Shown here piece after piece: positions 272 through 39,030 of a stretch of DNA of 63,835 nt. The notes beneath the pieces are model-generated. The model saw nothing but the letters and a program-made list of their open reading frames with translations. It was not told the DNA's origin and searched no databases. A program made the translations under genes and the position numbers. How positions within the stretch are numbered: the stretch's first letter is position 1; each line of letters starts with the position of its first letter. Source of the stretch: a virus (taxonomy: Duplodnaviria; Caudoviricetes); the IMG/VR virus record IMGVR_UViG_3300007515_000008, positions 1-63,835 of that record; one strand, written 5' to 3'.

Positions 272-283
272 CAGGAGCAAAAT

Positions 284-18773: not shown

Positions 18774-21700
18774 ATGGGTAAGTATACTGGTGGTAAAAGT
18801 TCTGCTAATCAAAAAACAGATCTTAAAAAACCTAAGTTTAATATGGAAGGTTTCAAACCTTCTGAAGAAGACGCTGGTAATATTGAAAGAAAACGATTAG
18901 CTTTATCACAAGCAGCTAAAAAAGCCTCGCAAATTGAAAGAGATCAAAGAGGTAAAGAAATACCTGAATATTCTAAAGAATGGTCTGAAGCTCGTAGAGC
19001 TAGACTTGAAAGGCAATTAGCTCAACAAGAATATGAAAAAGTTTTAATGAACTTAGATCAACAATCAAGTCTTAATAATGATTTAATTGATGATGTTTAT
19101 GGAGGTACTCAAGATACTACTGGTCAAATAGGTACACCTATAGTAGAAGAAGCAACAGCTCCTGAACAAACAATATATTCTACTCCAGAAGAAGCTCCTG
19201 ATACAGGCACGGGTTTTCCTGGAAATGAACCTGAATCATTAGGTGTGGGTCCTGGAGGAATAGCTGTTACCGATCCTATTGGAACTATGTCTAAAGCTCC
19301 TTTAATAGAGGCTATATTATCTATACCTCAGGAACAAAGAACTACATGGATGTGGAATCAACTTGATGAGCATGGTCCTGAACATTATGATAGGATGCAA
19401 GCTGTAGATCGTGAGATGGTAGATCAAGATGAAGATACTGGAGATCGTCCAAGTCCTATAAGTAAGGTTCAAATACCATACCAAGAAAAAATGCAGATGA
19501 TGCATGATAGTCATGAGATGGGTAGGCAAATACAAAGAGAGATGGATAGACTCTGGGAATCAGGTCAACTTTATGCAAATCAACCAGGACAACCGGGTTG
19601 GGATCGTGCAGATAATGCGGCTATGCTTCAACGTATTAAAGATGGTGAGTTTACAGTAGAATCTGTTCGTGATTTTATGGAAGGTATAGTTACTACTCAT
19701 GAAGAATTAGCGAGAAGAGGTGTTCCTAATGCTCTTTCTGATGTTATGTTACATTCAGTATTACATCAGATAAGAGAGGCTTATAGAAGAAAAGGAGATC
19801 CTGATGATATTAGAGGGCGTGAAGAAGCTATAAGAGATTCTGGTGCTGCACCAACTACTCAAGAAGAAAATGACCAGAGAATAGTTATGAGAGCTCACGA
19901 CCATCGTGAGATAGGTAACTTAATTCTTGGAGCTATGGGTATAGCGCCTGATAGTCGTAATGTTAATAATACTACAGCAGGTACTATTGCTAATAATATG
20001 GTAGCAAAAGTATTTCCAGATTTATTTTATAAAGATTCAAAAGGTAATACTGTAGTTTCTCAAGAAGGTTTTAATACAGCAGAACGTATGCTTCCTATGA
20101 CACAAACTATATTACCACAAGTTAAAATAGGTGTTAGATTTAAAAAGAAAACTACTCAAAGTAATATACAACGACCTCGTTCAGGAGATAAAGATGTTTA
20201 TTATGGAGATTATGATTTAGTTAATGACACTATAGATGTTCTTGATAATCAAGCATGGACAATTGATCAAGATTTTGTTAGAGTTGTAGATGCTCTTGTT
20301 CAATCTGTTGAAACAGATGTTAATGGTAATGTTGTTCTTACAAATATAGATAAATTAATTGGTATAGGTCCAGAAGATACCGGTCAATTAAATAATAGAA
20401 CAGGTGAGCGTAGAAAGAAAGATCCTAGAACAGGACGAGATGTTCTTGATGAAAATGGTCAACCAGTAATGGAATGGTACGCAGGAGATAGAATTAAAGA
20501 TGTTATCTTCAATGATAATATGGATTGGGCTATAGCATTAGGTAATGATAGATTTTATTATGATCACTTTTTAGGTGGAAATAATAGATTTTATATTTCA
20601 CAGTTTGTTGGTAATTATCATAGTCATAAATTAGCTAGAGCTATGTTAATGGCTGATTTTATAGAAATGTATGATACTTCAAATCCTGTTACATTAATGG
20701 AATTAAAAGCAGGAATTGCTAAAAAGTTTGGAAAAAATAAAATGGGTGTTCAAGCAGCTGCAGATTATTTTGATGCTAACATTCAAAGATGGTCTAATAT
20801 GATGGACAATATTAGAGAAGATGGTAAAGCTATTATTGATTTAGCTTATGATAATGATGGATGGGCTTCTGTTAGCGCTTTAACCGAAGCTAAAAAACTA
20901 TTTGATCATTTACGAGATGTTGAAGCAGGTAAATCTAATACAGTATATACATCTAAATTTCTTACTGAGATTGATGGAACAGGAAATGGATTAGCTCATA
21001 ATGCTTTACAAGCTGGTGATTTTAATACAGCATTATTAACTAATATTAATCCTTATTTTAATGCTCCAAAAGGCACTGCTAGAGTAGATAAAGATGGTAA
21101 TTTATTAGAGCATGATGTATATCATGTTACTGGTTCTGGGTTAAAAGCTCAATTAGAATCATTAGCTGATGAAGCAGATGCTGATTATCTTAATCAAGCT
21201 TTTGTAGCATTAGGTCTTATAAATGATAAAACAAGAAGAGATTTTTCAAAAGCACCTTTAATGATATTTCAATATGGAGCAGGTAGAAATTTAATAAAAA
21301 GAATTGTTCGTGAAAATGTATTGTTAATGTTAGAAGATGAAGGTACTTTAAATGCTTTTAATCAGGTAGCTATAGCAATGGGTAAAGATCCTAAAACTAA
21401 AGCACAGATACAAGAAGCTATAGAAGCTGGTGATTTTGAAGGTAGTTCTAATTATAGAGATGCTGATTGGATCATTGATCGTATGGGTGATATGATGGTT
21501 AAGTCTGTAGAAAGTAATTTTCCCATGCTTAAAGACTTAAGTAATATATTATCATCAATGGCTAATGCTGCTTCACTTCATCAACCACCTATTGATTTAT
21601 CAGTTATTACTATAGGTGGGCATCGTATTAATTTTGGCCATACTATGTGGGAGAAAGATGAGGTTAGATCTTTTGTAGATACTGTAAATAAAGGAGATTA

Positions 21701-22421
21701 CAAACAATCTACAAAGTTTGATGTAGCTGAGAAGAATTTATATCCACAAGGTAGAACTATCTTTACTAAAACTAAAGAAGGTAGAGATATTCAAATGAAA
21801 AGAAAGGCTACAGGAACTGAGCCTAATCCTTTTTATAGAAATGATTGGAAAGAACATCCTATTTTTAATCCTCCAGAAGTTCCAATAGGAACTTTAAAAG
21901 CTGCAACTCAAGCAGCGGTATTAATGACTCACTCACTTGATGGTATAAATGTGGCATTATCATTAACACAATTTAAGAAAGATCATACTCAAGCAGGTGT
22001 AGCCCAAATATTTGATGGCTTTTTAGTAACACCAAAAATGGCTAGACAATTAGCTACACAACTTAATAAAGATTTTCTTGATATAAATTTTGGGAAAGGT
22101 GGGCGTTCAAGAACATCAGGTCATGGTATTCTTGGTCCAGAAGATACTGTAGCTGATGCTCGTAAAGATGCTAAAAACTTAAATCTATACAATCCAGATA
22201 CACGATATGATTTCTTAATGAATAATCCTAATAATAGTAATGTATTATTATTATATAGAGCTATGGCTAGATTAGGATTTAGATGGGACGACTATAAAGG
22301 TGGTGGTCTTGTTGAAAGAATTAAAAAGTTTGAACAACAAAGAAAAGCTTATCGTAAGAAATTCTTAAAGAAAGATGGTACTTTAAACTATGATTCTACT
22401 AAGCAATACTTTTGGGATTAA
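18774..22421 (+). CDS. Putative virion-encapsidated single-subunit RNA polymerase (N4 vRNAP-like)
   Basis: FLGGNNRFY (DxxGR-equivalent), motif A EIDGTGNG, motif B RDFSKAPLMIFQYG, THSLDG, motif C QIFDGF; last gene of the ejection cluster. Confidence 0.85.
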   Translation: MGKYTGGKSSANQKTDLKKPKFNMEGFKPSEEDAGNIERKRLALSQAAKKASQIERDQRGKEIPEYSKEWSEARRARLERQLAQQEYEKVLMNLDQQSSLNNDLIDDVYGGTQDTTGQIGTPIVEEATAPEQTIYSTPEEAPDTGTGFPGNEPESLGVGPGGIAVTDPIGTMSKAPLIEAILSIPQEQRTTWMWNQLDEHGPEHYDRMQAVDREMVDQDEDTGDRPSPISKVQIPYQEKMQMMHDSHEMGRQIQREMDRLWESGQLYANQPGQPGWDRADNAAMLQRIKDGEFTVESVRDFMEGIVTTHEELARRGVPNALSDVMLHSVLHQIREAYRRKGDPDDIRGREEAIRDSGAAPTTQEENDQRIVMRAHDHREIGNLILGAMGIAPDSRNVNNTTAGTIANNMVAKVFPDLFYKDSKGNTVVSQEGFNTAERMLPMTQTILPQVKIGVRFKKKTTQSNIQRPRSGDKDVYYGDYDLVNDTIDVLDNQAWTIDQDFVRVVDALVQSVETDVNGNVVLTNIDKLIGIGPEDTGQLNNRTGERRKKDPRTGRDVLDENGQPVMEWYAGDRIKDVIFNDNMDWAIALGNDRFYYDHFLGGNNRFYISQFVGNYHSHKLARAMLMADFIEMYDTSNPVTLMELKAGIAKKFGKNKMGVQAAADYFDANIQRWSNMMDNIREDGKAIIDLAYDNDGWASVSALTEAKKLFDHLRDVEAGKSNTVYTSKFLTEIDGTGNGLAHNALQAGDFNTALLTNINPYFNAPKGTARVDKDGNLLEHDVYHVTGSGLKAQLESLADEADADYLNQAFVALGLINDKTRRDFSKAPLMIFQYGAGRNLIKRIVRENVLLMLEDEGTLNAFNQVAIAMGKDPKTKAQIQEAIEAGDFEGSSNYRDADWIIDRMGDMMVKSVESNFPMLKDLSNILSSMANAASLHQPPIDLSVITIGGHRINFGHTMWEKDEVRSFVDTVNKGDYKQSTKFDVAEKNLYPQGRTIFTKTKEGRDIQMKRKATGTEPNPFYRNDWKEHPIFNPPEVPIGTLKAATQAAVLMTHSLDGINVALSLTQFKKDHTQAGVAQIFDGFLVTPKMARQLATQLNKDFLDINFGKGGRSRTSGHGILGPEDTVADARKDAKNLNLYNPDTRYDFLMNNPNNSNVLLLYRAMARLGFRWDDYKGGGLVERIKKFEQQRKAYRKKFLKKDGTLNYDSTKQYFWD

Positions 22422-23745: not shown

Positions 23746-24711
23746 TCACCAACCCCACTCTCCTACCATACCAACCGTAGAATAGTCTGTTACAGTTTTC
23801 TCAAAGAAATTACTAAGAGAATCACCTGAGGTTAAATCTTCAACCCAAGGTAAAGGATTAGTCTTTACTTTAAAGTTTCCTTTAAAGCCTAGTTGGATTA
23901 ATCTTCTATCAGCTAAGTATTTTATATAATCTTTAACCTCTTTCTTATCTAAGCCTTCAATATCTCCGGCTGCATAAGCAAGATCAATCACTTTTTCTTC
24001 TAACTTAACTACTTTTCTAGCCATTTCATATATATCTGACTTGAATTCATCAGTTAGAATTCTACTATGCTCTCCACAAAACTCTCTAAACAACTTACTC
24101 ATTCCTTCAACATGTAGAGTTTCGTCACGTATACTCCATTCTATAACTGTTCCCATGCCCTTCATTTTACCACGTCTCTGATAATTCAGTAGCATAGCGA
24201 AAGCTGAGAATAAAGTTACTCCTTCATTAAATACAGATAGAGCTATAGATTTAGCTATTCCTTGGTGGGAATTAACATCTGCACCTCTCATGAAGTTTGC
24301 TTTGTTTACCATTTGTTTATATTCTAAGAATGTACTGTATTCTTTTTCATGTAAACCTAGTGTATCATTCAGTAAGGCATAAGCCCTCTGGTGTATACCT
24401 TCCCTTGCTGCGATCGATAATAACATTGATCTAATTTCATTATTAGGGAATTTAGGTATATAAAAGTCGCAGTAATTCTGAGCCACAATAACATCAGCTG
24501 AGGTAAACAACCTAAGTATAGATGTTATATGTTCTTTCTCAACATCAAGTAACTCTCCGTTTTTCCATTGAGTTACGTCTTCAGCTAGGTTTATTTCTTT
24601 TTCTGTCCAATGTATATCCTCATGTTGCTCAGCTAATTCTATAGCCCAAGGAAATTGGAACGGTTTAAATACTATATTTTCTTCCATTAATCCCATAATA
24701 TCACCCCTCAC
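23746..24711 (-). CDS. nrdB: Ribonucleotide reductase class Ia beta subunit
   Basis: HWTEKE, EGIHQRAY, EGVTLFSAF, WSIRDETLH, NFFE...DY ferritin-like motifs; start may be 24696. Confidence 0.95.
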   Translation of the reverse strand: MRGDIMGLMEENIVFKPFQFPWAIELAEQHEDIHWTEKEINLAEDVTQWKNGELLDVEKEHITSILRLFTSADVIVAQNYCDFYIPKFPNNEIRSMLLSIAAREGIHQRAYALLNDTLGLHEKEYSTFLEYKQMVNKANFMRGADVNSHQGIAKSIALSVFNEGVTLFSAFAMLLNYQRRGKMKGMGTVIEWSIRDETLHVEGMSKLFREFCGEHSRILTDEFKSDIYEMARKVVKLEEKVIDLAYAAGDIEGLDKKEVKDYIKYLADRRLIQLGFKGNFKVKTNPLPWVEDLTSGDSLSNFFEKTVTDYSTVGMVGEWGW

Positions 24712-26476
24712 ACGCTAAACATTCATCAGTAGCATCACCAAGAGCTACTCTTTCAACTCTTTGACCCATGTTTTCAGCCACTTGAGTGCTTGACGTTCGT
24801 AGATAATATAATGTTTTTAATTTCTTATTGAATGCGCTAAGATGTACGCTGTTAACATATGATTTATCTGATCCAGCTGGAAAGAATAAGTTAACACTTT
24901 GTGATTGACATATATATTTTTGTCTATCACTTGCGTGTTGTACAATCCAATGCTGATCTAATTCAAATGCTGTTTTAAATACATCGCGCTCCCAATCAGT
25001 TAAGTAGTCTAGTTGTTGAACAGATCCTTGATGGTGACCTATATTCCGCCACTCTCTTTCTAGCCATTCTTTATCCTTACCTAGTCTTAACCTGTGCTCT
25101 TCCATCACCTCTTTCAGGTGTTTGTTTTTTATTAAGTGTGAACCAACCCTGGTTTTATGTATAAAACTATTAGATTTAATAGGTTCTATAGACGGGGATG
25201 TTCCTATGATCATTCCGCTGTTAGCATTCGGCGCTATAGCTAAGAGATGACTATTTCTATCACCACTTCCTTTACCAAAAGGATATTCATACTTACGTTT
25301 AGCTAAGTTTTTAGTAGCTTTTTTAGCTCTGCTTTTAATATGTGAAAATATTCTTTTGTTCTGACCTACTGCTAAAGCAGATTCCCATGGAATGCTTTTA
25401 GATTGTAAGTAAGAATGAAAACCCATAGCTCCTAATCCTAAAGATCTCTCTGTCTTAGCACTGTTCACCGCTCTAAATAAAGGCTCTGGTGCTTGAGCTA
25501 TAAATTTAGTTAATACGTTATCTAACATTTCAATTAAATCTTCTACTATAGTAGAGTCTTTCCACTCATCAAACTTTTCTAAGTTCAAACTACTTAAACA
25601 GCAAACAGCTGTTCTCTTTGAATCAGTAGGTAGTATAATCTCAGCACAAAGATTACTACCTTTTACTTCTAATCCTTTCTTTTTAAGAAATTCAGGTAGT
25701 TTTCTATTGCTTTCATCGATGAAGTGAATATAAGGTTCACCTGTTCTAAAGCGAGTTTCCAGTATTCTTTCCCATAGTTCTCTCGCACGGATCGTATCAC
25801 GTATTGTATCATCGTGAGGATCAATAAGATCCCAATCACTGTCATTAGTAACACATTCCATAAAAGCATCAGTAATATTAACAGCATTGTTAATGTTAAA
25901 GCACTTGCGATTTGAATCACCACCAGAGGGAATCCTGATATTGAGGAACTCGATAATATCTGGGTGTCTGACGTCCAAGTATGCTGCATAACTCCCCTTC
26001 CTTGTTTGTCCTTGTTTATAAGCAGTCATCGCTGAGTCTGCTACCTTAATAAAAGGTATAGGACTCGGAGCTTTATCACTCACAGCTCTTACATCTGACC
26101 AATGACCTCCAACACCTCCACCTTTAACACTTAACCAAGCTAATTCTGATTGATGATCTATCAAACCTTCTAATGTATCAGGTATATAATTCAGAAAACA
26201 ACTTATAGGTAAGCCTAATGGTTTCTCTCCTGGAGCTGGTGCGTTACTTAATATAGGACTACTAAACATAAACCAACCATTACTGACTCCGTCATATAAT
26301 CGTTGAGCTAATTTCATATCTTTTTCGCAATATGCTAAACATGCTCTAGCATAAGCCTCTTGTGGAGATCTTTCTTTTCCTCTAAGATAGTGAGCTTTTA
26401 ATAAATCAATAGCTTGATCGCTTATTTCTCTATCTTTAGATCTGTTTATTTCTATTCCTAAATATTTACTTTTCAT
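24701..26476 (-). CDS. nrdA: Ribonucleotide reductase class Ia alpha subunit (short, no ATP cone)
   Basis: PISCF, KGGGVG, SNLCAE, AVCCLSSLNL, AIAPNANS, TLYY, C-terminal CLACEG. Confidence 0.96.
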   Translation of the reverse strand: MKSKYLGIEINRSKDREISDQAIDLLKAHYLRGKERSPQEAYARACLAYCEKDMKLAQRLYDGVSNGWFMFSSPILSNAPAPGEKPLGLPISCFLNYIPDTLEGLIDHQSELAWLSVKGGGVGGHWSDVRAVSDKAPSPIPFIKVADSAMTAYKQGQTRKGSYAAYLDVRHPDIIEFLNIRIPSGGDSNRKCFNINNAVNITDAFMECVTNDSDWDLIDPHDDTIRDTIRARELWERILETRFRTGEPYIHFIDESNRKLPEFLKKKGLEVKGSNLCAEIILPTDSKRTAVCCLSSLNLEKFDEWKDSTIVEDLIEMLDNVLTKFIAQAPEPLFRAVNSAKTERSLGLGAMGFHSYLQSKSIPWESALAVGQNKRIFSHIKSRAKKATKNLAKRKYEYPFGKGSGDRNSHLLAIAPNANSGMIIGTSPSIEPIKSNSFIHKTRVGSHLIKNKHLKEVMEEHRLRLGKDKEWLEREWRNIGHHQGSVQQLDYLTDWERDVFKTAFELDQHWIVQHASDRQKYICQSQSVNLFFPAGSDKSYVNSVHLSAFNKKLKTLYYLRTSSTQVAENMGQRVERVALGDATDECLACEG

Positions 26477-26692: not shown

Positions 26693-26872
26693 TTAATGAT
26701 ATTTATTAATTTCGTCTAACTCTAAAGTTAGATATTCAAAGCCAAGTTTCTTAAGCTCTTCGCAAGTTTGCAGCCAAGCTATACATTCTGTTAAAACTCT
26801 TTCGTCTTTCGAGTGTGTTATTACTGTTTTTATTTTACTTTTTACATCATTCACGTGTATCTGTTGACTCAC
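26693..26872 (-). CDS. 59-aa hypothetical protein (not in ORF track)
   Basis: GTG start after AAGGAG; fills the gap between neighbours. Confidence 0.5.
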   Translation of the reverse strand: MSQQIHVNDVKSKIKTVITHSKDERVLTECIAWLQTCEELKKLGFEYLTLELDEINKYH

Positions 26873-27284
26873 ATTCTTCTCCTTCTATTTCTAATATAAC
26901 ATAATCTTCCTTATTATCGTCATACCCTCCGAAATGTGATGAGAATCCAGTTACTATTTCATTGTGATCATCTTTAATAGCTTCATATTCTACCATTGCA
27001 TCCATTAAAAACTTGTGCAATGCCCACGTAAAGTTATCTATATCTCGTTTTCTTTTGTTTCCGAAATATAAAGTATAATGTATTGTTAATTTATTGTATT
27101 TTGGTAAAGACTCCACGAAGTTTTTTACTTCCTCGTGGTAGTCTTTTTTAGCTTTAGCTAGTGTTGCCCAATGTAAATTTCTATATAAATTACCAGTAAG
27201 TATTCCAGCTTTACCTTTCTTTATATATAATGGGAAGTTCAACCTAGCTATCAACCTTTTGCTCCTGTCATTGTAATAGTCCAA
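26847..27284 (-). CDS. RusA-like Holliday junction resolvase
   Basis: RDIDNF...KFLMDAMV...IKDD motif. Confidence 0.8.
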   Translation of the reverse strand: MDYYNDRSKRLIARLNFPLYIKKGKAGILTGNLYRNLHWATLAKAKKDYHEEVKNFVESLPKYNKLTIHYTLYFGNKRKRDIDNFTWALHKFLMDAMVEYEAIKDDHNEIVTGFSSHFGGYDDNKEDYVILEIEGEECESTDTRE

Positions 27285-28087
27285 CGATCTTTATCAGGAT
27301 TATGTCGTACTCTTACTCCAGCTCCTTGATGAGACTGACCGTCGCATAGTTCTATTAACTTTTTCTTCATAGTTTCCATGCGTCCTTCTTGTAGTTGCTT
27401 TTCTTCACGTGCCATTTTCCAGAAGAATGCTAACTCTTTCCATTCTTGATCTTCACGTTTAATAATATCATTAACTCCAGGCTCAGGTTTCCCCTTAAAA
27501 TATTCTTTCCATGAACTTAAGATATCATCACGGAGTTCTGGTTGGGTTTTATGAATCCTATGTAGACCTTCTTTATTATGTCTGTCATAAACCCAAAAGT
27601 TACAATGATCTTCACCTGAAAGTAACATTTGTTGTTCCATTTGAATTTGATATTGAAATGGAAGTTCTTCATTATTTAACATTGTCTTCCATAATGGAGA
27701 CTCTGATCCATTTAATGGTACTTTGATTTCTACAATCTCAGATCCACTCCATTTCTGACGACCATCTAATGAAGCCATTAACGGTAATCCTTCTATTTCG
27801 TCAACTATACAGCATGGTTCGAAAACAGTTCCATGATAATGTTGCCAAGATTCTCTAGCTTCATCTTCAAATTCACTACCTATTGTCATCGCGAAGTTTT
27901 GTTTAACTTCTAACTCTCCGTTCTTTAACTCCCATAGTTGTAATGGTGTTTTAGGAATCCACGGACTAACGCCCATAGCTGAAGCAGCTTCAGAAGCTGT
28001 ACCATATTTCCTTCTAAACTTTAACCAAAGTTCACTACCTTGTGGCATTGAATTTTCGTCATACAACCTTGTTGTTTCACTATACAT
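27251..28087 (-). CDS. YqaJ/lambda-exonuclease-like nuclease
   Basis: QGSELWLKFR...TASE, ASLDG...EIK, YQIQMEQQM. Confidence 0.9.
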   Translation of the reverse strand: MYSETTRLYDENSMPQGSELWLKFRRKYGTASEAASAMGVSPWIPKTPLQLWELKNGELEVKQNFAMTIGSEFEDEARESWQHYHGTVFEPCCIVDEIEGLPLMASLDGRQKWSGSEIVEIKVPLNGSESPLWKTMLNNEELPFQYQIQMEQQMLLSGEDHCNFWVYDRHNKEGLHRIHKTQPELRDDILSSWKEYFKGKPEPGVNDIIKREDQEWKELAFFWKMAREEKQLQEGRMETMKKKLIELCDGQSHQGAGVRVRHNPDKDRWTITMTGAKG

Positions 28088-28101
28088 ATTATTACTCCTT
28101 A

Positions 28102-29595
28102 TTATTTTCTACGTTTAGCCCATTTTATTTGAAGATGTTTAATATAACTCATCGTCTCTTTGTTAGGCTTTTCTGCAACGGCATCTTTAAAATTAGGATA
28201 ATTATCAAACCGTTCTTTATACTTATGATTAGCCCAGTTTTCTTTATAACCTTTGATCACAGTATATCCGAGTAGTTGTTGATAAAACTCTTTCCTAAAA
28301 TTCTCACCGTATTTCTCTTTTCTTTCTACTTTCTTTGTCTTTTTATTTACTAAACCTAATTCAGCATCTATAAACTCGACATAAGAACTTTTTATTACAT
28401 GAACCTTTCCGCAACTTGGACAAACGTTATGACCGCTGAATGTTCTAAAACATCCTTCGCAAATTATTAAACGTTCTTCTCGTTCTTTAGGTTCAACTCT
28501 TTCATTTTCTTTTACTTTTCCAACAGATAATATCCAGTTGTGATCGTCTGTTGCTAATCCATTTGTATATACAGCACCAGAATGATCTATAACTATTGCT
28601 TTATCTTTTGACGGATGTGGACGCAGCACTCTTCCTACCATTTGAATATATAATCCTAAAGATCTTGTTGGTCTTGCTAATACACAAACTTGAGCTTTTG
28701 GTGCATCAAATCCTTCAGTAAGTACCATGCAATTACATATTACTGTTATTTTACCAGAATCAAAATCTTCAAGTATTTTTACTCTTTCTTTTGTTGGTGT
28801 TTGTCCATCTAAATGAGCAGCTTTAATTCCATTATCTACAAAAGCTTCAGTAAGATTTCTACTGTGTTTCACACCTGAAGCAAATACCAAAGTTCTTTTA
28901 TCTTCCGCTAAATGCTTCCAAGTTCTTATAACGTCTCCAACTAGTTTCGGTAAATCCATACGTCTACTTAATTCTTTAGCATTATAATCACCTGCTACTA
29001 ATCCTATACCTTTAAGATCTGGAATACTTGGTGAATAATATATAGCTTCTATTAAACTTCCCATTTTTGTAAGAGTTTTAATTCCTGGTGCTTTAACCAT
29101 TTTAGAATACATAGAGCCTAATCCCATTCCATCAGATCTAACTGGTGTAGCTGTTAATCCTACAATTAAACTTTTACTATATAAATTTATTAATTTTCGA
29201 TATGTATTACTCATTGATCTATGAGCTTCATCAATAACTATTAAATCTGCTTTAGGTAATTCCATTTTCTTTTTTGTTATTGCTCTAGCACGTAGAGTAT
29301 CTATTGAAGCTATTTGTACTGAAGCAAATTCATTTTCTTTTTTATGATTAGCCATAATAACTCCATGTCTTACTCCGAAGTCATTTAACTTATCTGATGT
29401 TTGTATAATTAATTCACGTCTATGAGCTAAGAATAATACTTTTTTATCTTTATCTACAAATGCTTTTACTAATGCTGAAGCCATAACAGTTTTACCTGAA
29501 CCTGTAGCAGCTTGTAATATTATTCTTCTATGTCCTGCTCTTTCAACTTTAATTAATTTGTTTAAAACATCTTTTTGATATTGTCTAAGTTTCAT
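28102..29595 (-). CDS. SF2 (DEAH) DNA helicase with C-terminal Zn finger
   Basis: LRQYQ, ATGSGKT, DEAH, TAT, QMVGRVLR, CEGC...CPSC. Confidence 0.93.
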   Translation of the reverse strand: MKLRQYQKDVLNKLIKVERAGHRRIILQAATGSGKTVMASALVKAFVDKDKKVLFLAHRRELIIQTSDKLNDFGVRHGVIMANHKKENEFASVQIASIDTLRARAITKKKMELPKADLIVIDEAHRSMSNTYRKLINLYSKSLIVGLTATPVRSDGMGLGSMYSKMVKAPGIKTLTKMGSLIEAIYYSPSIPDLKGIGLVAGDYNAKELSRRMDLPKLVGDVIRTWKHLAEDKRTLVFASGVKHSRNLTEAFVDNGIKAAHLDGQTPTKERVKILEDFDSGKITVICNCMVLTEGFDAPKAQVCVLARPTRSLGLYIQMVGRVLRPHPSKDKAIVIDHSGAVYTNGLATDDHNWILSVGKVKENERVEPKEREERLIICEGCFRTFSGHNVCPSCGKVHVIKSSYVEFIDAELGLVNKKTKKVERKEKYGENFRKEFYQQLLGYTVIKGYKENWANHKYKERFDNYPNFKDAVAEKPNKETMSYIKHLQIKWAKRRK

Positions 29596-29660
29596 TCTGT
29601 ATACCATTGAAATAATATACATAATAAAAACCCTGTCATTAATATTATTTTTATTATCAT
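29592..29660 (-). CDS. 22-aa hydrophobic micro-protein coupled to the helicase start
   Basis: TAAGGAG RBS; MIIKIILMTGFLLCILFQWYTE*; ATGA overlap. Confidence 0.45.
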   Translation of the reverse strand: MIIKIILMTGFLLCILFQWYTE

Positions 29661-29684
29661 CTTATACTCCTTATTATTTATAAC

Positions 29685-29725
29685 ATCTATCGAGGACACT
29701 GGATGGGCCAATGTCCTCTGTAGAT
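29685..29725 (-). promoter_or_regulatory. Long intergenic hairpin (processing site or terminator)
   Basis: GAGGACATTGG-CCCAT-CCAGTGTCCTC with flanking ATCTA/TAGAT pairing. Confidence 0.55.
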
Positions 29726-29735
29726 ATTACTGTTT

Positions 29736-30227
29736 TTAGAACATTATATCTTCGTCATCATCACTAACTGCTTCAAGTGGTTTTTCTGATTTTTCAGAGA
29801 AAGTAAATTCAACACTGTCGCTTTGTGCTCCAGAGTATTCATTTAAATCTACAACTTGAACAGCAATTAATTCAGCTGACTTTCCTTTTTGACCTTGAAA
29901 CTCCCATTCGCGGACTGAATATTGTACATTACATACAGAATCATTACCAATAATAAGTGGATCCATTGAGTCACCAAACTTATCAACTACCATAGGTGGT
30001 TTCTTTGGGTCTCCAGAATTGCGCCATACACAGTCTTTCTTAAGTTTAATGAACGTAAGTCCATCTTTATCTTTAACTGCTGGTTTAACTCCAGAATCTT
30101 CCCAGGATTTAGCTTGTTCAGGTGAAAGCAAACAGTCAATAGACCATTCTTTTTCATCTGACATATACTTAGTTCCTGCGTTGTCGCCTAGTTTAGGCCA
30201 TAGTACTTTAGTGTTTTCTAATATCAC
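29736..30227 (-). CDS. T7 gp2.5-like ssDNA-binding protein
   Basis: PPMVVD...IIGNDSVCNV...LIAVQVVDL.EY; acidic tail ending DDDEDIMF. Confidence 0.8.
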   Translation of the reverse strand: MILENTKVLWPKLGDNAGTKYMSDEKEWSIDCLLSPEQAKSWEDSGVKPAVKDKDGLTFIKLKKDCVWRNSGDPKKPPMVVDKFGDSMDPLIIGNDSVCNVQYSVREWEFQGQKGKSAELIAVQVVDLNEYSGAQSDSVEFTFSEKSEKPLEAVSDDDEDIMF

Positions 30228-30239
30228 TTTTATTACTCC

Positions 30240-30551
30240 TTAATTGTTAAACATATTTTTATCACTATTTTGACCTGGAACATCACCGTCCATATAAGCT
30301 ATAAAGAAAGTGGTGTAGTTTATCAGGTCCACACAAGAGTCCTGAACGGACTCAAAGTTCGTACTGTCACGAGTTTCCATTTGCTCCATAACAGATTTAA
30401 TTCTTAACATTTTTGCCCACATAATATCATATATAGACTGTACACCTCTAGGATAATAATCAGCTTGAGTCACTGATGATTTTCCAGTATAGTCTTGGGC
30501 TTTCTTTTCCATTACTTCTTGACAATGTGTCAAGGCTTCTATTGATGTCAT
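30240..30551 (-). CDS. Nucleotide-modification-associated domain 1 (Nmad1)-like all-alpha protein
   Basis: KKAQDY...KMLRI...ESVQDSCVDLINY; adjacent to the TS-family gene. Confidence 0.7.
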   Translation of the reverse strand: MTSIEALTHCQEVMEKKAQDYTGKSSVTQADYYPRGVQSIYDIMWAKMLRIKSVMEQMETRDSTNFESVQDSCVDLINYTTFFIAYMDGDVPGQNSDKNMFNN

Positions 30552-30568
30552 ATTATTACTCCTTATTA

Positions 30569-31303
30569 TTAAATTAAAGTTTGATTAATTTCATCTAGTT
30601 TAATCATTTTCAAGATACTATCTGTATCTTTTTCATATATATGTAAACTGTCCGCACTAAATGTTAATGTACCTATTCTTAATTTCGGATAAGTACGACC
30701 TAGGTCCCATTGCATCTTTTCCATTAAATACGAAAACCAAGGTAAGTCATATACAGGACCAGTGAATAAATCTGCTGATCTCATCCTTACTGTTGAATGT
30801 AATTTATCTTCTCGTATATGGAAGTTTTGATACATAGTACATACAAAATCCTTTGGATTTAGTTTTGCGTGTTTTGCTTTATTATATCTACATATAGCTT
30901 GTCTACTATCTTTATCTTCTTTTATTGTTCTTAAAGCAAAGTAATACGGTGTAGTATTAAATTCACTATGATCTTTCAATGTTATATGTCCATAGTTAGA
31001 ATTTATTTTACCATCATCATTAGCTATAGTTTTCCAAAACTTACTTGGTGCACCATCTGCTTTTGTATCACCGTTTAAATACCAATCCAATTCTTTTCTA
31101 GTATAGTGTTTTATAATTCTATTCCTATCTATATCATTAGTTATAATAGGATCACTGTTTGGATTGTCTATTGTTATTTGTACATTTAGTTTTTCTCTTA
31201 CTGGCATACCTCTTGGTTTTACTTTATAATCATAATGGTTATAAACAAGCCATAATAATTGAGAGTATGCATCAGATATATTTTTTGCATTATTAACGAA
31301 CAT
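30569..31303 (-). CDS. Thymidylate-synthase-family enzyme, probably dCMP-specific (dCMP hydroxymethylase-like)
   Basis: ELDWY, NSNYG, SRQA, DFVCT, MRSADLFTGPVYDLPW (Asp at the specificity position), SLHIYE. Confidence 0.8.
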   Translation of the reverse strand: MFVNNAKNISDAYSQLLWLVYNHYDYKVKPRGMPVREKLNVQITIDNPNSDPIITNDIDRNRIIKHYTRKELDWYLNGDTKADGAPSKFWKTIANDDGKINSNYGHITLKDHSEFNTTPYYFALRTIKEDKDSRQAICRYNKAKHAKLNPKDFVCTMYQNFHIREDKLHSTVRMRSADLFTGPVYDLPWFSYLMEKMQWDLGRTYPKLRIGTLTFSADSLHIYEKDTDSILKMIKLDEINQTLI

Positions 31304-31315
31304 ATCGCCTCCTTA

Positions 31316-31846
31316 TTATTTATCTCTTATATAATCACCTACTTCATTTAAGTGTCCTGTACGGTCCTTTATCTCATCATAAGCGGATAAAATACAATCG
31401 TATAATCTTATCTTTTGTAGGGCACATTGCATAGTTAATGTTACTATTATATCACCTATAGCATCTATAATTTCTTCTTTATCATTTCTATTAACTGCTT
31501 CTAATAATTCATGGCATTCCTCAAGAGTTTTAATAGCTTGAGTTATAGGTTTACCATTTTTAGTTATCTTTCTTTCATCACCCCATTTAGTTATTAGATC
31601 AATTATCTCATCTATCCAATAATCATTATTAGTATAAGTATTATATTTAGTATACGTTACACCATCAAATGGTACAAAAGTATCTTGTTTACTATCGTAT
31701 CTAGAACTAACAGCTTTATTTAAACTATGTCCACAAAATGGACAATGAGTTGCTGGTTGATCTAATTCAATAGATTCAGTAGCGAAACCCATTTCATCTT
31801 TAACCATAACTTCAAATGGTTCACTTTCACATTTTTGACATCTCAT
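31316..31846 (-). CDS. Zn-ribbon plus MazG-like NTP pyrophosphohydrolase
   Basis: CQKC...CPFC; KTLEECHEL...DAIGDIIVTL...AYDEIKDRTG. Confidence 0.85.
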   Translation of the reverse strand: MRCQKCESEPFEVMVKDEMGFATESIELDQPATHCPFCGHSLNKAVSSRYDSKQDTFVPFDGVTYTKYNTYTNNDYWIDEIIDLITKWGDERKITKNGKPITQAIKTLEECHELLEAVNRNDKEEIIDAIGDIIVTLTMQCALQKIRLYDCILSAYDEIKDRTGHLNEVGDYIRDK

Positions 31847-31848
31847 TT

Positions 31849-32340
31849 TTACTCCTTATTATTCCATATCTTTTTCGGATCCATGTAGTATCCGCCAAAG
31901 TTGGATTCTTTTAATTGTTTAATTATATTTTCAGCAGGCCATAAAGCATATTTTTCAATATTAACACTATCACCAACTTCTAATAATTTACTTTGATCGC
32001 GGTCTGTTTTAATAAATAGAAAATGAGTTAATTCACCTTCTTTTATATTACGAGTCCACCATTTCTTTTTATTTCCACTCTTACCACCAACATTAAACCA
32101 TTTGTTATTAACTTCTTTAATGTCAACAAACATATCTTGAAACCTAAAGTCATTCTTTATACTTTCTGTTTCATCTACAAGTCTTAATGATGATAAATAC
32201 CATTCTAATAATTGAGCATCTAATTGAATTTCAGCTTTAGAATAACCTAAATCCCATTGTTCTTTTCTATGTTTAATAAAACTTTCTCTAACAGGTATTT
32301 CTTTAAAATTATCCATTATATTACAGAGTTCAGCACTCAT
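31849..32340 (-). CDS. Hypothetical protein, possible PD-(D/E)xK nuclease
   Basis: LLEWYL...NDF...VDIKEV spacing. Confidence 0.45.
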   Translation of the reverse strand: MSAELCNIMDNFKEIPVRESFIKHRKEQWDLGYSKAEIQLDAQLLEWYLSSLRLVDETESIKNDFRFQDMFVDIKEVNNKWFNVGGKSGNKKKWWTRNIKEGELTHFLFIKTDRDQSKLLEVGDSVNIEKYALWPAENIIKQLKESNFGGYYMDPKKIWNNKE

Positions 32341-32378
32341 AATAACTCCTTATTTTTAGTTAAAATTATCTCAACCGG

Positions 32379-32400
32379 CTCTATAAGGGAGTGGTCGAAT
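32379..32400 (-). promoter_or_regulatory. Candidate phage RNAP promoter for middle genes, ATTCGACCACTCCCTTATAGAG
   Basis: Identical 22-mer at 43843 in opposite orientation; T7-promoter-like; overlaps the RNAP stop codon. Confidence 0.75.
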
Positions 32401-34841
32401 TAGCAGAAGAAATAATCTGAATCTATTAATTCTAGTAAGTTGAGTTTCCCTTTCTTCGGTTCAGGTTCTACAAATAGAGGATCATTATTTATAATTTGTC
32501 CTCTCATATCTTTAAATATATTCTTATCATATATATCTATAAATGTTTCTTTTGTTATATGTAATAACTCAGGTACGTTTTCAGCGTGTACACTAAAACT
32601 ATCGTGTATTGCACCAAATGATAAGATACCTGCTTTTTGTAATTCAATTATGACTAACGACATGTGAGCTGCATCCATTGAATGTACATAATTCGGACTG
32701 ATTCCTGAAATCATTTCATGCATTGCAGGACGTTCAGTTTGTTCGTGTACTACTACTTGTATTCTTCCTTGTGTAAATGGTAGTTCTATCTTCTTTTTGT
32801 TCATAATCCACTTCTCAGACACACATGGGAACCCGCTAGGACTTACCCAGCATACTGTATCTTCATTTTGTACACCTACCCTATGCTTGACTAAGGCTTG
32901 TAAGTAATTTTTAATAGAAACAGGACCAGAACAAATTGCATTATAAGTGTGCACAAGATCTTTTGATAGCTTTTTCGCTATTGTTTTTGTGATTCCGTAT
33001 TTTGTTGTCATACCAGCGTCATAGCAATCCATGTAAATAATATCAGCTATACATTTCACTCCAGCATCATAAGCTTTAGTCATAGTTCCTCTTTTACTAA
33101 TACCTTTTCGTATTAATTTCATAGGTATTTCTGCTAATATTTTACCTAAATCAGTACCAATATTTCTATTAAGAATTCCTTTAGCTACTACTATATAAAA
33201 GTCTATTGGTTTTTCTTGTGGAATTAATCCAACCATTCTACCAGCTATTTCATCTTTTGACATCGCAGCTAGATGTTGAGTTCCATTAGAAGATCCATCA
33301 ATAGCAATTGGTAGATTTGAATAATGCTCTTCACCTGATAATACTGAACCATGATAAGCACATATTTCAAAACATATTGATAAGAAAACCCAAGGTTTTT
33401 CAGCTGCCATCCAAATATCTTTAGTACCTATAGGATCTTCTGCTATATTCCAAAATAATTCAGTGTTTTGTTCTGACCATTCTTGTCGATCTTCTAATGA
33501 CATTTTATCTACTGAAAGATCTGGTATTCCATCAGTAACAAGGTCCGTTATATAGTTCGTTTTAGTCCATTCTAATTCAGTTAATTCTGCTACTGTATAG
33601 GACTGATTATAACTATTTGCAGCATGTATTAATAAATATTTAAATCCTTTTTCAGTTACTAGTTGTTTCTCAGCAAATTGTAAATGTCCTCTTGCTAGGT
33701 CATTAGATTGATAAGAAAAGTATGGATCTCTAGCATATACTCTTCCTCTAAAGTCAAGAAACATAGATAAGTAAAATGTGTAAGATGCCCAACCGTTTAT
33801 TCCATGTATGCTATTTAATATTGCATGGTTTCTTGCAGCTTTTGATTGTGTCGCTAAGCATAGTTGTTTTGCTGTCCACATTAAATTGTGTTTGTCAAAT
33901 AATTTACTAAGTTTAGCTATGCTTTTCTTACACTTTTGCATTGCTTTTCCATCTATTTTCAGGTTATTCTTGCGCTTCTCTTCTTTACTTAATTGAGCTT
34001 CAATTGTTTTAACTGTTGTAGCATTTCCTTTGTGAGGTTCGAATAGTGATCCATCTTTATAAAGATTAACGTCTTTATATATTTCATTTATATTTTCTCT
34101 TCTAATATCTTTTGTATCAAATTCAATTTCATCACCATTTTCTGTTTTTAGTTTTATTATTGTTTCAGTTAATTTGTTTGTTAATTGTTCACTCACTTTC
34201 GCAACACTAGCATTTACGCACCACTTAACTTTCTCTAATGTATTAACTGCTTTCACATATTCATCGTATCTATCAATTTCTTTTATCGAGCTTTTAATTA
34301 GTCGATCTTTAATTCCGTCTACCATTCTTACGTTTTGTTTCCAAGCAGGATATTGGTGTCTCGATATTCCTATTCTTTCTTTGTCATCTAATATTATGTT
34401 TCCATATCTATGTCCCATTTCTAAATGATATGGCTGCAGACGCACAGTTCTTTTTTGTCCTCGTTCCATAATTTCTTCTATTGTAAAGAAAGGTTCTCTT
34501 GTTAGTATTAAATATTCGTTATCGATAAGTGTGTTCAGTACTAAACAACCAAGTTTCATTTTAATAACTATATTATCGTTTTCTATATTTAAGTGCCTCA
34601 CGATTATTTCACCAACATTCATATTAGTGTTGGTCAACATAATTTTCCCTTCGTGTCTTTGAAATGTTGATGTAAGATAATTAAACGTTTCTTTAATTAT
34701 ATTCACCATTCGGAAATCATCTCTAAGACAGTTTGCATTTCTTACTTCTTTAATTGCAGAATTATTATTATTTGCACTTCCACTCTGCATGATCTTTTCT
34801 TCTATCGACCAAACTATTTCTTGTACATTACTGTTTTCCAT
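32400..34841 (-). CDS. T7/T3-like single-subunit DNA-directed RNA polymerase
   Basis: LDFRGRVY, SNDLARGHL, AEKPWVFL, PIAIDGSSNGTQH, KRGTMTKAY, PNYVHSMDAAHM, IHDSF, C-terminal YFFC; GGAGG RBS before 34841. Confidence 0.96.
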   Translation of the reverse strand: MENSNVQEIVWSIEEKIMQSGSANNNNSAIKEVRNANCLRDDFRMVNIIKETFNYLTSTFQRHEGKIMLTNTNMNVGEIIVRHLNIENDNIVIKMKLGCLVLNTLIDNEYLILTREPFFTIEEIMERGQKRTVRLQPYHLEMGHRYGNIILDDKERIGISRHQYPAWKQNVRMVDGIKDRLIKSSIKEIDRYDEYVKAVNTLEKVKWCVNASVAKVSEQLTNKLTETIIKLKTENGDEIEFDTKDIRRENINEIYKDVNLYKDGSLFEPHKGNATTVKTIEAQLSKEEKRKNNLKIDGKAMQKCKKSIAKLSKLFDKHNLMWTAKQLCLATQSKAARNHAILNSIHGINGWASYTFYLSMFLDFRGRVYARDPYFSYQSNDLARGHLQFAEKQLVTEKGFKYLLIHAANSYNQSYTVAELTELEWTKTNYITDLVTDGIPDLSVDKMSLEDRQEWSEQNTELFWNIAEDPIGTKDIWMAAEKPWVFLSICFEICAYHGSVLSGEEHYSNLPIAIDGSSNGTQHLAAMSKDEIAGRMVGLIPQEKPIDFYIVVAKGILNRNIGTDLGKILAEIPMKLIRKGISKRGTMTKAYDAGVKCIADIIYMDCYDAGMTTKYGITKTIAKKLSKDLVHTYNAICSGPVSIKNYLQALVKHRVGVQNEDTVCWVSPSGFPCVSEKWIMNKKKIELPFTQGRIQVVVHEQTERPAMHEMISGISPNYVHSMDAAHMSLVIIELQKAGILSFGAIHDSFSVHAENVPELLHITKETFIDIYDKNIFKDMRGQIINNDPLFVEPEPKKGKLNLLELIDSDYFFC

Positions 34842-35061
34842 AATTTCCTCCATAATCATTATCAACTAAATATTTATTATCATCAATTTCTATTACATAT
34901 CCTACTTCTAATGCTTTCTTTAGAAGTTGATCTTCATCTAATTCAAAGTTAAAATTAGGTGCTTGATTCATAAATAGCTCATGTTTAGTAAAAATTACTT
35001 CTTCAACAATTTGAATTGTTTTAACTTTTCCTGGAATTGTCCAGTTATTATTGCTTTTCAT
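34828..35061 (-). CDS. Hypothetical protein
   Basis: 77-aa ORF with AGGAG RBS. Confidence 0.55.
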   Translation of the reverse strand: MKSNNNWTIPGKVKTIQIVEEVIFTKHELFMNQAPNFNFELDEDQLLKKALEVGYVIEIDDNKYLVDNDYGGNYGKQ

Positions 35062-35169
35062 GATACTCTCCTGTCTTTTTAGCTTGTTTTTTCTTATCTG
35101 GTATTATTTTTGTATGCCATATTTTACTATGTCTTAAAGCATATTTTAGTTTATTTTTAATCCTGTGTT

Positions 35170-36141
35170 TCATTCTTTCTCCTTATATCTATTCCAGTCT
35201 AATTTATCATTCCAATCTTCACCAGTTTCTTCAGGAATAAATACATAAGCTTTTATTCCTTTCATTTTCATTTTCTTAGCTAGAACGTATGCTGCGGCTT
35301 GTCCTGTGAATGATGCGTCATTATCACCATATATCATTACACATTCCACACCATTTGGTGGAATAAAGTTTTCTAAACAATGTGCATTAGTAGACGCGAA
35401 TGCTGGGTATCCACAATCTAAACTACCCGCGTATGCTGATTCAATTCCTTCTGCTACGCAAATTGTGCTTATACCATTTCCAGAATCACAGTAAGAAGCA
35501 AGTACAGATTTTTCTATCCAATCAGTATCTAAACGTATTGATGCTCCAGTTATTGTACCTTTTGGTGGCATAACTTTTCTAGCACTCTTTAGATCTGCTT
35601 TCTTACCATCTTTTGTGTATGTGATATGGAATGACACTCCATCTCCTTTAAAGTCTTGTATTAAACTAACCATGCAATCAAATTTACCTTTAGATTTTCC
35701 ATCTTCAAAGTAATCTAACCTTGCTTGTTTTAATCCATCTGGAATATCTTTAAATCCTCTTGATCTTAAGTAAAGACCAACAGATCCGTTCCATTCTATT
35801 GGTTTCAATTGTTTTGCTACATAATTTAGTGCTGGTCGTGGATCTTTCTTTGGTACAACTTCAACTTTTTCAAGTTTACCAAGTCCCACTAGCGGCTCTA
35901 TATGTTCTACAGCAGTACGGAAATCCCACTTGTATAACTTTTGTACTAGTGTCCAACCATTTCCGTTACCACATCCTCTACATAAATATACTCCATCACC
36001 ATTTAGATCTGTGAAAGTATATCTATCTTTACCTCCACATAATGGGCAAGGACCATTTTTATTTTGCAGGTATTTATCATCAACACCAAGTGTTTTGAGA
36101 ATACCGTGCCATCTGCCTTTTACGGCTTCGGTTACATCCAT
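35170..36141 (-). CDS. DNA primase (P4-alpha-type Zn-binding domain plus Toprim)
   Basis: GPCPLCGGKDRY...CRGC; YLRSRG; VAEGIES; YGDND...GQ; DWND. Confidence 0.9.
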   Translation of the reverse strand: MDVTEAVKGRWHGILKTLGVDDKYLQNKNGPCPLCGGKDRYTFTDLNGDGVYLCRGCGNGNGWTLVQKLYKWDFRTAVEHIEPLVGLGKLEKVEVVPKKDPRPALNYVAKQLKPIEWNGSVGLYLRSRGFKDIPDGLKQARLDYFEDGKSKGKFDCMVSLIQDFKGDGVSFHITYTKDGKKADLKSARKVMPPKGTITGASIRLDTDWIEKSVLASYCDSGNGISTICVAEGIESAYAGSLDCGYPAFASTNAHCLENFIPPNGVECVMIYGDNDASFTGQAAAYVLAKKMKMKGIKAYVFIPEETGEDWNDKLDWNRYKEKE

Positions 36142-36155
36142 ATTATTACTCCTTA

Positions 36156-36413
36156 TTATTTACTATCGTTTGCTGCGCATTTAGTGTCCCAGTGTTTTGC
36201 CCAGAAATTTAGGATTTTAGACGATGTTATTCTATCAAGTTCATCATTAACATCAATGTCAATTTCTATTTCTCTTTTTACTGGTTCATTTGGTTTTACT
36301 TCGCTTGCATTATTTATTAATTTATAGCTTCCTGTTGGAATACTAGAAATATCTAATAAGTCAAACAACATTAACTGTTCATTCAAACCATCGCAAGTCA
36401 TTGTTATTTTCAT
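36156..36413 (-). CDS. Hypothetical early protein
   Basis: ORF with TAAGGAG RBS. Confidence 0.55.
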   Translation of the reverse strand: MKITMTCDGLNEQLMLFDLLDISSIPTGSYKLINNASEVKPNEPVKREIEIDIDVNDELDRITSSKILNFWAKHWDTKCAANDSK

Positions 36414-38463: not shown

Positions 38464-39030
38464 CTATGCTCTAAAGTAATAACCATCTTCTTCAAAATAG
38501 TCATACATAAGTTCATGAGCAGCAGATTCCCAATCTATGCAATTCATCGGCCAATCCTCTCCACCTTCATCAAATCCAAGTGTTTCAGATGCCATTTCTC
38601 TTGCAAAGTCTTCATCATCATCATAATAACCTATATAACTTTCTTCTATATCACATAATTCCATATAGTTTTCTAAGGCAGCATTAACAGCTGCAATAGG
38701 TATGTGCTCATTATCTCTTAAGAATTCGATATATTCAAATATCTCATCCATTTCCATTGCTTCATCACTTTCTACACCATCAGGCCAATCTTGAAAATCT
38801 TGAAACATAAATTCAGGATCGTCTTCATCTTCGTGTATTTGCATACAACGTTCTAAGAAATCTTGTTCATTACCATAGTCAGCTATCGTTACCCACTCAC
38901 CATGTAGATCACCTTCGGCATATTTCTTATAAGTTCCAACATATACTTTTATTTCTTCTATTGCTTTTTCACGTTCTGTTTGTTCAGTATATTTTTGAAA
39001 CGCTCTTAGTTCTTCTGTTGTCATTGCCAT
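38464..39030 (-). CDS. ardA: Antirestriction protein ArdA (DNA mimic)
   Basis: VYVGTYKKY..G.L.GEW, PEFMFQD, YIGYYDDDEDFA, IDWESAAHEL..DY, GYYFR; highly acidic. Confidence 0.88.
   Translation of the reverse strand: MAMTTEELRAFQKYTEQTEREKAIEEIKVYVGTYKKYAEGDLHGEWVTIADYGNEQDFLERCMQIHEDEDDPEFMFQDFQDWPDGVESDEAMEMDEIFEYIEFLRDNEHIPIAAVNAALENYMELCDIEESYIGYYDDDEDFAREMASETLGFDEGGEDWPMNCIDWESAAHELMYDYFEEDGYYFRA

Follow-up and report, generated by a model that had tools for sequence, protein, structure and literature searches.

The stretch analysed here, IMG/VR virus record IMGVR_UViG_3300007515_000008 (Duplodnaviria; Caudoviricetes), is a complete phage record of 63,835 b, linear, with no N and without a terminal repeat, and we refer to it throughout as the window. 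It is laid out as a forward-strand virion block (1-22421), a reverse-strand early/replication block (22470-44765) and a forward-strand packaging, head and tail block (44925 to the window end). The system in question is the replication module of the early block, which encodes a primase, a helicase, recombination functions, two proteins that bind single-stranded DNA (SSBs) and an RNA polymerase (RNAP), and in which no gene for a DNA polymerase was found. The open reading frames (ORFs) of this block that bear on DNA synthesis are listed below with their profile matches.

23746-24711, reverse strand: class I ribonucleotide reductase (RNR), small subunit (PF00268, E 2e-70)
24701-26476, reverse strand: class I RNR, large subunit (PF02867, E 5e-106)
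26847-27284, reverse strand: RusA-like Holliday junction resolvase (phrog_1682, E 3e-27; PF05866, E 0.0014, below cut-off)
27251-28087, reverse strand: YqaJ/RecE-like recombination exonuclease (PF09588, E 2e-14; phrog_434, E 3e-24)
28102-29622, reverse strand: superfamily 2 (SF2; DEAD/DEAH, ResIII) DNA helicase (PF04851, E 7e-33; PF00271, E 9e-19; phrog_16, E 1e-105)
29736-30227, reverse strand: gp2.5-like single-stranded DNA-binding/annealing protein with acidic tip DEDIMF (phrog_112, E 1e-8; no Pfam match)
30240-30551, reverse strand: DUF1599, nucleotide modification associated domain 1 (PF07659, E 2e-5)
30569-31303, reverse strand: thymidylate-synthase-fold enzyme, dCMP-hydroxymethylase-like (PF00303, E 5e-15)
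31316-31846, reverse strand: Zn-ribbon plus MazG-like nucleotide pyrophosphohydrolase (PF03819, E 7e-7; phrog_1992, E 3e-26)
31849-32340, reverse strand: 163-aa ORF (no Pfam or PHROG match)
32400-34865, reverse strand: T7-like single-subunit RNAP (PF00940, E 4e-70; phrog_414, E 2e-109)
35170-36141, reverse strand: DNA primase with Zn ribbon, DUF7146 and Toprim, without a helicase domain (PF08273, E 2e-12; PF13362, E 7e-14; phrog_510, E 3e-52)
42132-42470, reverse strand: second SSB, OB-fold, of bacterial type and without an acidic tip (PF00436, E 2e-13)

The search for a DNA polymerase gene

Six-frame profile searches over the whole record returned no matches at E<=10 for DNA_pol_A (PF00476), DNA_pol_B (PF00136), DNA_pol_B_2 (PF03175), DNA_pol3_alpha (PF07733), the Y-family profile IMS (PF00817) or RVT_1 (PF00078), and none at E<=1 for Prim-Pol (PF09250); the DnaB-type helicase profile DnaB_C (PF03796) likewise has no match in the window. 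All ORFs of at least 200 aa were scanned with PHROGs, and with Pfam too except for five that have a clear PHROG virion assignment. RNAPs are the sole polymerases among these ORFs, no DNA polymerase appears in either scan, and 20 small ORFs of the early region received no named function. Controls were positive: the same tool picks up the PolA of the cultured relative CRP-7 (see below) at E 4e-37, the main RNAP of the window at E 8e-70 and a very divergent second RNAP-like ORF at E 7.5e-9, the last being found in 4/6 clade genomes, and PolA was found in four of five isolates that carry a gp2.5-like SSB.

An earlier note on this DNA, made from the letters alone, had claimed that the phage lacks a DNA polymerase and a DnaB-type helicase despite RNR, a primase, a helicase, two SSBs and a base-modification cluster, and had proposed a profile search of the polymerase families. 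With that search run and nothing found in the window (zero matches for seven families, positive controls and, as shown below, a contig junction that lies within one gene), the absence of a DNA polymerase gene is confirmed and robust, and that of a DnaB-type helicase holds as well. The Toprim primase, the SF2 helicase, a recombination nuclease and both SSBs are borne out by profile matches. Every gene named in the note's list is present, although RNR and the OB-fold SSB lie outside the span of 26847-36141 to which it had assigned them.

Contig ends, relatives and the cultured phage CRP-7

A polymerase gene might nonetheless exist and be missing from the assembly, either at the unjoined junction of the contig ends or in unassembled sequence. 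The linear form of the record and its lack of a terminal repeat leave room for this, as does the finding that the two ends share no DNA-level overlap and that exact-match searches with the last 40 b (viral and metagenome contigs) and with 47 b near the start (metagenome contigs) returned no bridging contig. What lies at the two ends is the following.

59647-63834, forward strand: giant repetitive tail-fibre-like gene of 4 DUF7483 units (PF24299, E 5e-244, 4 stretches), open at its 3' end
1-283, forward strand: 3' end of the DUF7483 tail-fibre gene, 93 codons followed by a stop, frame 2 carrying on the repeat from TGFRPA

Comparison of reading frames places the repeat in frame at both ends, resuming at the same TGFRPA point, and the contig break thus falls inside one DUF7483 repeat gene. 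In all six related loci that include the upstream flank, the tail-fibre homologue ends 8-15 b ahead of the homologue of ORF 284-895, and related loci continue for ~75-78 residues past the window's stopping point, in agreement with the 79 residues supplied by the window start. One relative, G008, bridges the junction region with merely 750 b between the neighbours, and another, G010, takes in the early region from end to end, where all its ORFs are small. CheckV completeness of the window is 100%, and the completeness values of its kin imply an expected length of ~57-58 kb (calculated), against the 63.8 kb in hand. Because the break lies inside a single gene, the synteny holds in 6/6 loci and G008 and G010 cover the regions concerned, it is very unlikely that a polymerase gene sits in the gap; with PolA also missing from all 20 related records described next, loss from the assembly is an explanation to which we give almost no weight. 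Closing the gap, a check suggested in the earlier note, failed by direct joining, and it was the synteny of the related loci that resolved the junction and left no hidden gene. Among relatives, variation is greatest in the tail-fibre region, which runs from ~56.4 kb past the window end to 6.3 kb.

This phage belongs to a clade with many members in marine metagenomes, from Tara and other marine sampling: 1690 portal relatives were counted at E<=1e-20, and the best 80 of 319 related viral loci were retained. PF00476 has no match in any of 20 related IMG/VR records (3 + 10 + 7; completeness 13% to 92%, many of them fragments), an outcome that answers the note's call to check relatives, and PF00136, PF03175, PF07733 and PF09250 have none in 13 records, a set that includes CRP-7. 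Five relatives, with portal identities of 60-92%, were examined in full. All five keep a core of primase, T7-like RNAP, gp2.5-like SSB, SF2 helicase, YqaJ exonuclease and RusA. Of these six genomes only the window and G001, its closest relative, have the hydroxymethylase/DUF1599/MazG cluster; the other four are without it. RNR is limited to the window, G001 and G004. Because four of the five full relatives are without the modification cluster yet are also without a polymerase, the absence of a polymerase is a clade trait that is independent of base modification.

Roseobacter phage CRP-7 (MK613349) is the only cultured relative we found. It is reported to be a podovirus by electron microscopy, and its authors describe its polymerase as Cobavirus-like and its RNAP as distantly T7-like (PMC6918029). 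Its portal (45% identical), large terminase (42%), major capsid protein (43%) and a virion protein (36%) are shared with the window, as are the T7-like RNAP (gp30, 33%) and the gp2.5-like SSB (31%), and three giant ORFs close the virion module in both. Unlike the window, CRP-7 encodes PolA (gp24, E 4e-37), its primase-helicase has a DnaB domain (gp29, E 2e-14), and its exonuclease is a different one. Neither PolA nor a DnaB-domain primase-helicase occurs in the window or in the 3 kin tested, and homologues of the window's SF2 helicase, Toprim primase, YqaJ and RusA, as well as of the 1215-aa RNAP-like ORF described below, could not be detected in CRP-7. These identities indicate a distant kinship, not membership of the same genus, with replication modules that appear not to be shared beyond the RNAP and the SSB. 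Because CRP-7 has PolA and a DnaB-type primase-helicase, it carries a T7-type replisome and the window's clade a different replication module. Searches of the open literature, excluding subscription journals and supplements, found no description of the clade or of a link between the SSB tip and a polymerase.

Several further features of the record stand apart from this comparison. One protein, P0143, a 40% identical homologue of the 14129-18760 ORF, carries the source label of a Candidatus Thioglobus metagenome-assembled genome; given that binning of phage contigs is unreliable, the label is a weak hint to the host of some relatives. The hints on hosts, weak as they are, favour marine bacteria with pelagiphage-like GC. 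No tRNAs were found in the window. The early genes include an ArdA anti-restriction protein (38464-39030, reverse strand; PF07275, E 3e-17). Three identical 22-nt stretches occur at gene starts on the reverse strand (28085-28106, 30549-30570 and 36139-36160), with a fourth, 86% alike, at ~42880; the repeat was considered as a phage promoter and rejected, being a strong Shine-Dalgarno sequence together with the ATG start codon.

RNA polymerases and the large ORFs of the virion module

The phage is equipped for its own transcription, as the earlier note held, having in addition to the T7-like RNAP of the early block (32400-34865) a second RNAP-like ORF in the virion module. The note's further statement that every large ORF was accounted for proved too strong, because three other large ORFs of the same module have no family-level function.

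18774-22421, forward strand: second, divergent T7-like RNAP-like ORF, 1215 aa, closing the virion module (phrog_414, E 9e-14; PF00940, E 7e-8)
2873-4765: 630-aa ORF of the virion module (no family match)
11960-14119, forward strand: 719-aa ORF, candidate ejection protein (no family match)
14129-18760, forward strand: 1543-aa ORF, candidate ejection protein (phrog_6958, 'virion structural protein')

These four ORFs are where a cryptic polymerase would have to be sought, either as an unrecognised family among the 630-, 719- and 1543-aa proteins or as a 1215-aa enzyme that makes DNA as well as RNA. T7-type RNAPs and PolA share a fold, each of the six polymerase-less clade genomes examined carries the 1215-aa ORF, and the ORF's profile finds no homologue in the PolA-bearing CRP-7, a distribution that would suit such an enzyme. 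A single-sequence search of the PDB with this ORF gave no match, and a family profile built from six sequences matched T7 and mitochondrial RNAPs only (15/15, best 3.3e-5), with no DNA polymerase among the matches. Residues D734 (motif A), R822, K826, Y834 and G835 (motif B) and D1081 (motif C) are invariant in the six sequences and align with the matching motifs of T7 RNAP. Y834 corresponds to the Tyr of the T7 YG motif, a residue credited with selecting ribonucleotides. By these alignments the 1215-aa ORF, though of polymerase fold, is an RNA-polymerase relative, and its position after the candidate ejection proteins makes a virion-carried RNAP its most likely role. N4-like phages offer a functional analogy, in that they too have two phage RNAP genes of which one lies in the late/virion block; the N4 enzyme is about 3500 aa long, as opposed to 1215 aa here, and N4-like phages encode PolA.

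For the three remaining ORFs neither a family-level function nor a PDB sequence match was found, which keeps a cryptic replicase among them in view, and several observations oppose it. The 630-aa ORF cannot be an essential replicase because it is missing in all five full relatives. The 719-aa family is conserved at only 15-34%, and an Atlas look-up with this ORF gave viral hypotheticals only, the best score of 0.88 being at chance level. The 1543- and 719-aa families have no PDB match by profile and no match to a polymerase family, and the prediction for the last 544 aa of the 1543-aa protein is all-helical without beta strands (AF2 from 33 sequences, pLDDT 57, low confidence, from which only the secondary structure was taken). 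All three ORFs lie in the virion operon with sizes and positions that recall the T7 ejection proteins; the candidate ejection proteins of the window (185, 719 and 1543 aa) appear similar to those of T7 in size and order. None of the three looks like a replicase, and none is positively identified. Considering also that PF00476 is without a match even at E<=10, we regard a polymerase hidden in any of the four ORFs as unlikely.

At its N-terminus the 1543-aa ORF resembles staphylococcal nuclease (SNase; Pfam E 0.005, below cut-off), with D44, D46, T47, R58, E66 and R114 invariant in 5 homologues, and the protein may be an ejected nuclease.

Probable host-dependent replication and the acidic tip of the annealing SSB

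The helicase and primase of the window have their closest counterparts among phage isolates of a different kind. The best isolate match of the SF2 helicase is in Pelagibacter phage Baldr (41% identical), followed by Pseudomonas phage PS-1 (36.5%), both over the full length; for the primase, PS-1 ranks first (33% over the full length) and Stx2-converting phages come next (27%). The two homologous genes are neighbours in PS-1 and in the Stx2 phages (in the latter according to the features annotated under the match). PS-1 and the Stx2 phages differ from the window in being temperate. PS-1 carries RusA, an exonuclease and RecT as well, and Baldr, a complete genome of 39 kb, has a primase that is not detectably related to that of the window. 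In the annotation seen, none of these phages has a phage RNAP, which sets them apart from the window. No polymerase is annotated in PS-1, Baldr or T1, and none of the three gives a PolA or PolB match; the Stx2 phages we presume to be without a polymerase as well.

T1-like phages, which the earlier note had offered as the model, combine a Zn-Toprim primase, an SF2 helicase and a recombination nuclease with host DNA polymerase III (Pol III). The analogy stands insofar as T1 is polymerase-less and possesses a primase, helicases, a RecE-like exonuclease and an annealing protein; it weakens at the level of sequence, where the matches are partial and remote (33% over 111 aa of the primase N-terminus, 35% over 99 aa of the helicase), and T1 differs further in being a siphovirus with an Erf-type rather than gp2.5-like annealing protein and no RNAP. 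By sequence similarity the closest analogues are the helicase-primase modules of PS-1, the Stx2 phages and Baldr rather than that of T1. With T7-like Autographiviridae the window shares a single-subunit RNAP (PF00940, E 4e-70) and a gp2.5-like SSB, but PolA (PF00476) and the gp4-type fusion of primase and DnaB-family helicase (PF03796) are missing, and the RNAP is merely 22-27% identical to T7-group enzymes. Because the kin of its helicase and primase sit in polymerase-less isolates, the module would by analogy be of a known, host-dependent kind. Such absences are commonly read in the literature as reliance on the host (e.g. PMC12629253). Beside this comparison we note that the window's helicase has a Cys-rich (CxxC...CxxC) C-terminal extension past the helicase core, at residues ~363-410, possibly a zinc ribbon that contacts DNA or a partner.

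The same comparison bears on a dependence of another sort, in which the element is not autonomous and obtains its polymerase from a co-infecting helper phage. The absence of a polymerase is the sole support for such a dependence, and the window has a full set of virion, packaging and transcription genes, its clade is large, as counted above, and PS-1 and Baldr, with their homologous helicase, have been cultured on their own hosts (host/source record fields); we find this idea hardly credible.

We infer from the absence of a polymerase that use of a host polymerase is the best-supported reading, and consider it likely that this phage and its whole uncultured marine clade, being without a DNA polymerase gene, have their DNA made by a host polymerase, most probably the Pol III holoenzyme. 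The phage helicase and primase would open and prime the DNA, the host enzyme would carry out synthesis, and the YqaJ-type 5'-3' exonuclease, annealing SSB and resolvase would support recombination-driven formation and resolution of concatemers.

The acidic tip of the gp2.5-like SSB would be a likely recruiting hook for this purpose, resembling the docking site that bacterial SSB offers to chi, DnaG and repair proteins. The bacterial tip DDDIPF is reported to be bound by the Pol III chi subunit and by DnaG, and to serve as a hub for many repair proteins besides chi (PMC5872125, PMC3632105, PMC6783573). Across 16 complete loci of the clade, an acidic run precedes a short tip that reads IPF in 8, VPF in 3, PPF in 2 and ITF in 3, giving a PF ending in 13/16; two further SSB loci are cut by contig ends. 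In lineages that carry PolA the homologous SSBs have other endings. The tip LDGLDFDD occurs in 11 loci, with PolA in 4/6 tested records (the other two are 10-kb fragments), SDEGDF occurs in 4 loci with PolA in 3/3 tested records, the tip in CRP-7 is GAGEDF, and those in four isolates are IKEF, NEEF, GDFE and TAVI. Prophage DUF669 proteins, which are gp2.5-like, were proposed in a 2026 paper to mimic the DDDIPF tip and so to engage host proteins (PMC13687109). They share with the clade SSBs the combination of the gp2.5 family and a bacterial-SSB-like tip, although the window's SSB, unlike them, falls short of the Pfam DUF669 model, and the passages of that paper available to us do not link the tip to a missing phage polymerase. 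It is plausible, from the similarity of the tips, that the clade's SSB recruits host replication proteins. The OB-fold SSB of the relative G010 (13540-13959, forward strand, locus L103) ends in VVDMPF.

The tip is also compatible with a role for host polymerases other than the replicase, such as Pol I or repair polymerases, which would work in a recombination-dependent or break-induced mode of replication while the primase and helicase play a supporting part. Its bacterial counterpart is a hub for repair proteins as well as chi, and the complete recombination set of YqaJ, gp2.5-like annealing SSB and RusA is kept in all five full relatives. The dedicated primase and helicase point instead to processive fork replication, and for phages with similar modules the usual view is that Pol III makes the DNA. 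We rate synthesis by such non-replicase enzymes as rather improbable.

The modification cluster introduces a further step, restricted to the window and G001. The best solved relative of the thymidylate-synthase-fold enzyme is T4 deoxycytidylate hydroxymethylase (1b49, E 6e-19), compared with 2e-6 for the best thymidylate synthase. The catalytic Cys is aligned (DFVCT against DFMCT in 1b49), as is the cytosine-specifying Asp (VYDLPW against RNDYAW), which is Asn in thymidylate synthase, and the Asp-to-Asn mutant chain of 1b49 scores lower against the enzyme. In the T4 pathway gp42, the enzyme's nearest counterpart, works with a dCTPase and a kinase. A MazG-type pyrophosphohydrolase is found next door in the window, and 'base-modification cluster' seems a fair description of these genes. 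T4 differs in using its own polymerase, and no nucleotide kinase or glucosyltransferase was recognised here. In the window and G001 the dCMP-hydroxymethylase-like enzyme, MazG and the DUF1599 protein would feed modified dCTP to the host enzyme, which is the least secure step of the scheme. The earlier note's proposal that the host replicase would have to incorporate modified dCTP rests on this hydroxymethylase-like enzyme, is limited to these two genomes and has no identified kinase. The 163-aa ORF adjoining the cluster is likewise found in the window and G001 only. In the Atlas its neighbours bear the automatic name restriction endonuclease (score 0.95), which is no more than a lead, a single-sequence AF2 model of it was unusable (pLDDT 41.5), and that it might be a nuclease acting on unmodified DNA is speculation.

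Synthesis by a host polymerase must be weighed against a number of contrary points. The evidence for it is an absence, and a wholly new polymerase in the large ORFs is formally possible: the 630-, 719- and 1543-aa ORFs have no recognised fold or family, and the lone model has a pLDDT of 57. One Autographiviridae record with a gp2.5-like SSB, AP013547, gives no PF00476 match; its family is one that we expect to carry PolA, and either the polymerase was missed or the record is partial. The window's own tip is IMF and not IPF, and the correlation of tip with polymerase absence comes from a single polymerase-less lineage, and so stands for one event in evolution. The gp2.5 proteins whose partners are encoded by the phage, as in T7, typically have an acidic tail with a final Phe too, and the tip could serve the phage's own helicase or primase instead. 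Finally, no kinase for the modified nucleotide was recognised in the window.

A bolder scenario would have the 1215-aa polymerase take over part of replication, by supplying long primers or origin transcripts or by incorporating dNTPs, with loss of PolA linked to it, or would have a switch of the SSB tip enable that loss. We hold it to be a long shot. If it were true, the loss of PolA and the gain of the 1215-aa enzyme would be one linked event; in the milder version, the switch to an I/V-P-F tip let the clade discard a T7-type replisome and plug into that of the host.

Many phages leave DNA synthesis to the host, and the bare absence of a polymerase is unsurprising. What is unusual is that the clade has enzymes for its own transcription, and in some members also genes for nucleotide modification, but no polymerase: a host-dependent replication module in a podovirus with two T7-like RNAPs and, in some members, a dCMP-hydroxymethylase-like pathway. 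If the hydroxymethylase-like enzyme truly makes modified dCTP, a host replicase would have to accept it. CRP-7 and the clade form a natural pair for the question of how an autonomous replisome is swapped for a host-dependent one, and the SSB tip is a concrete candidate for the docking device.

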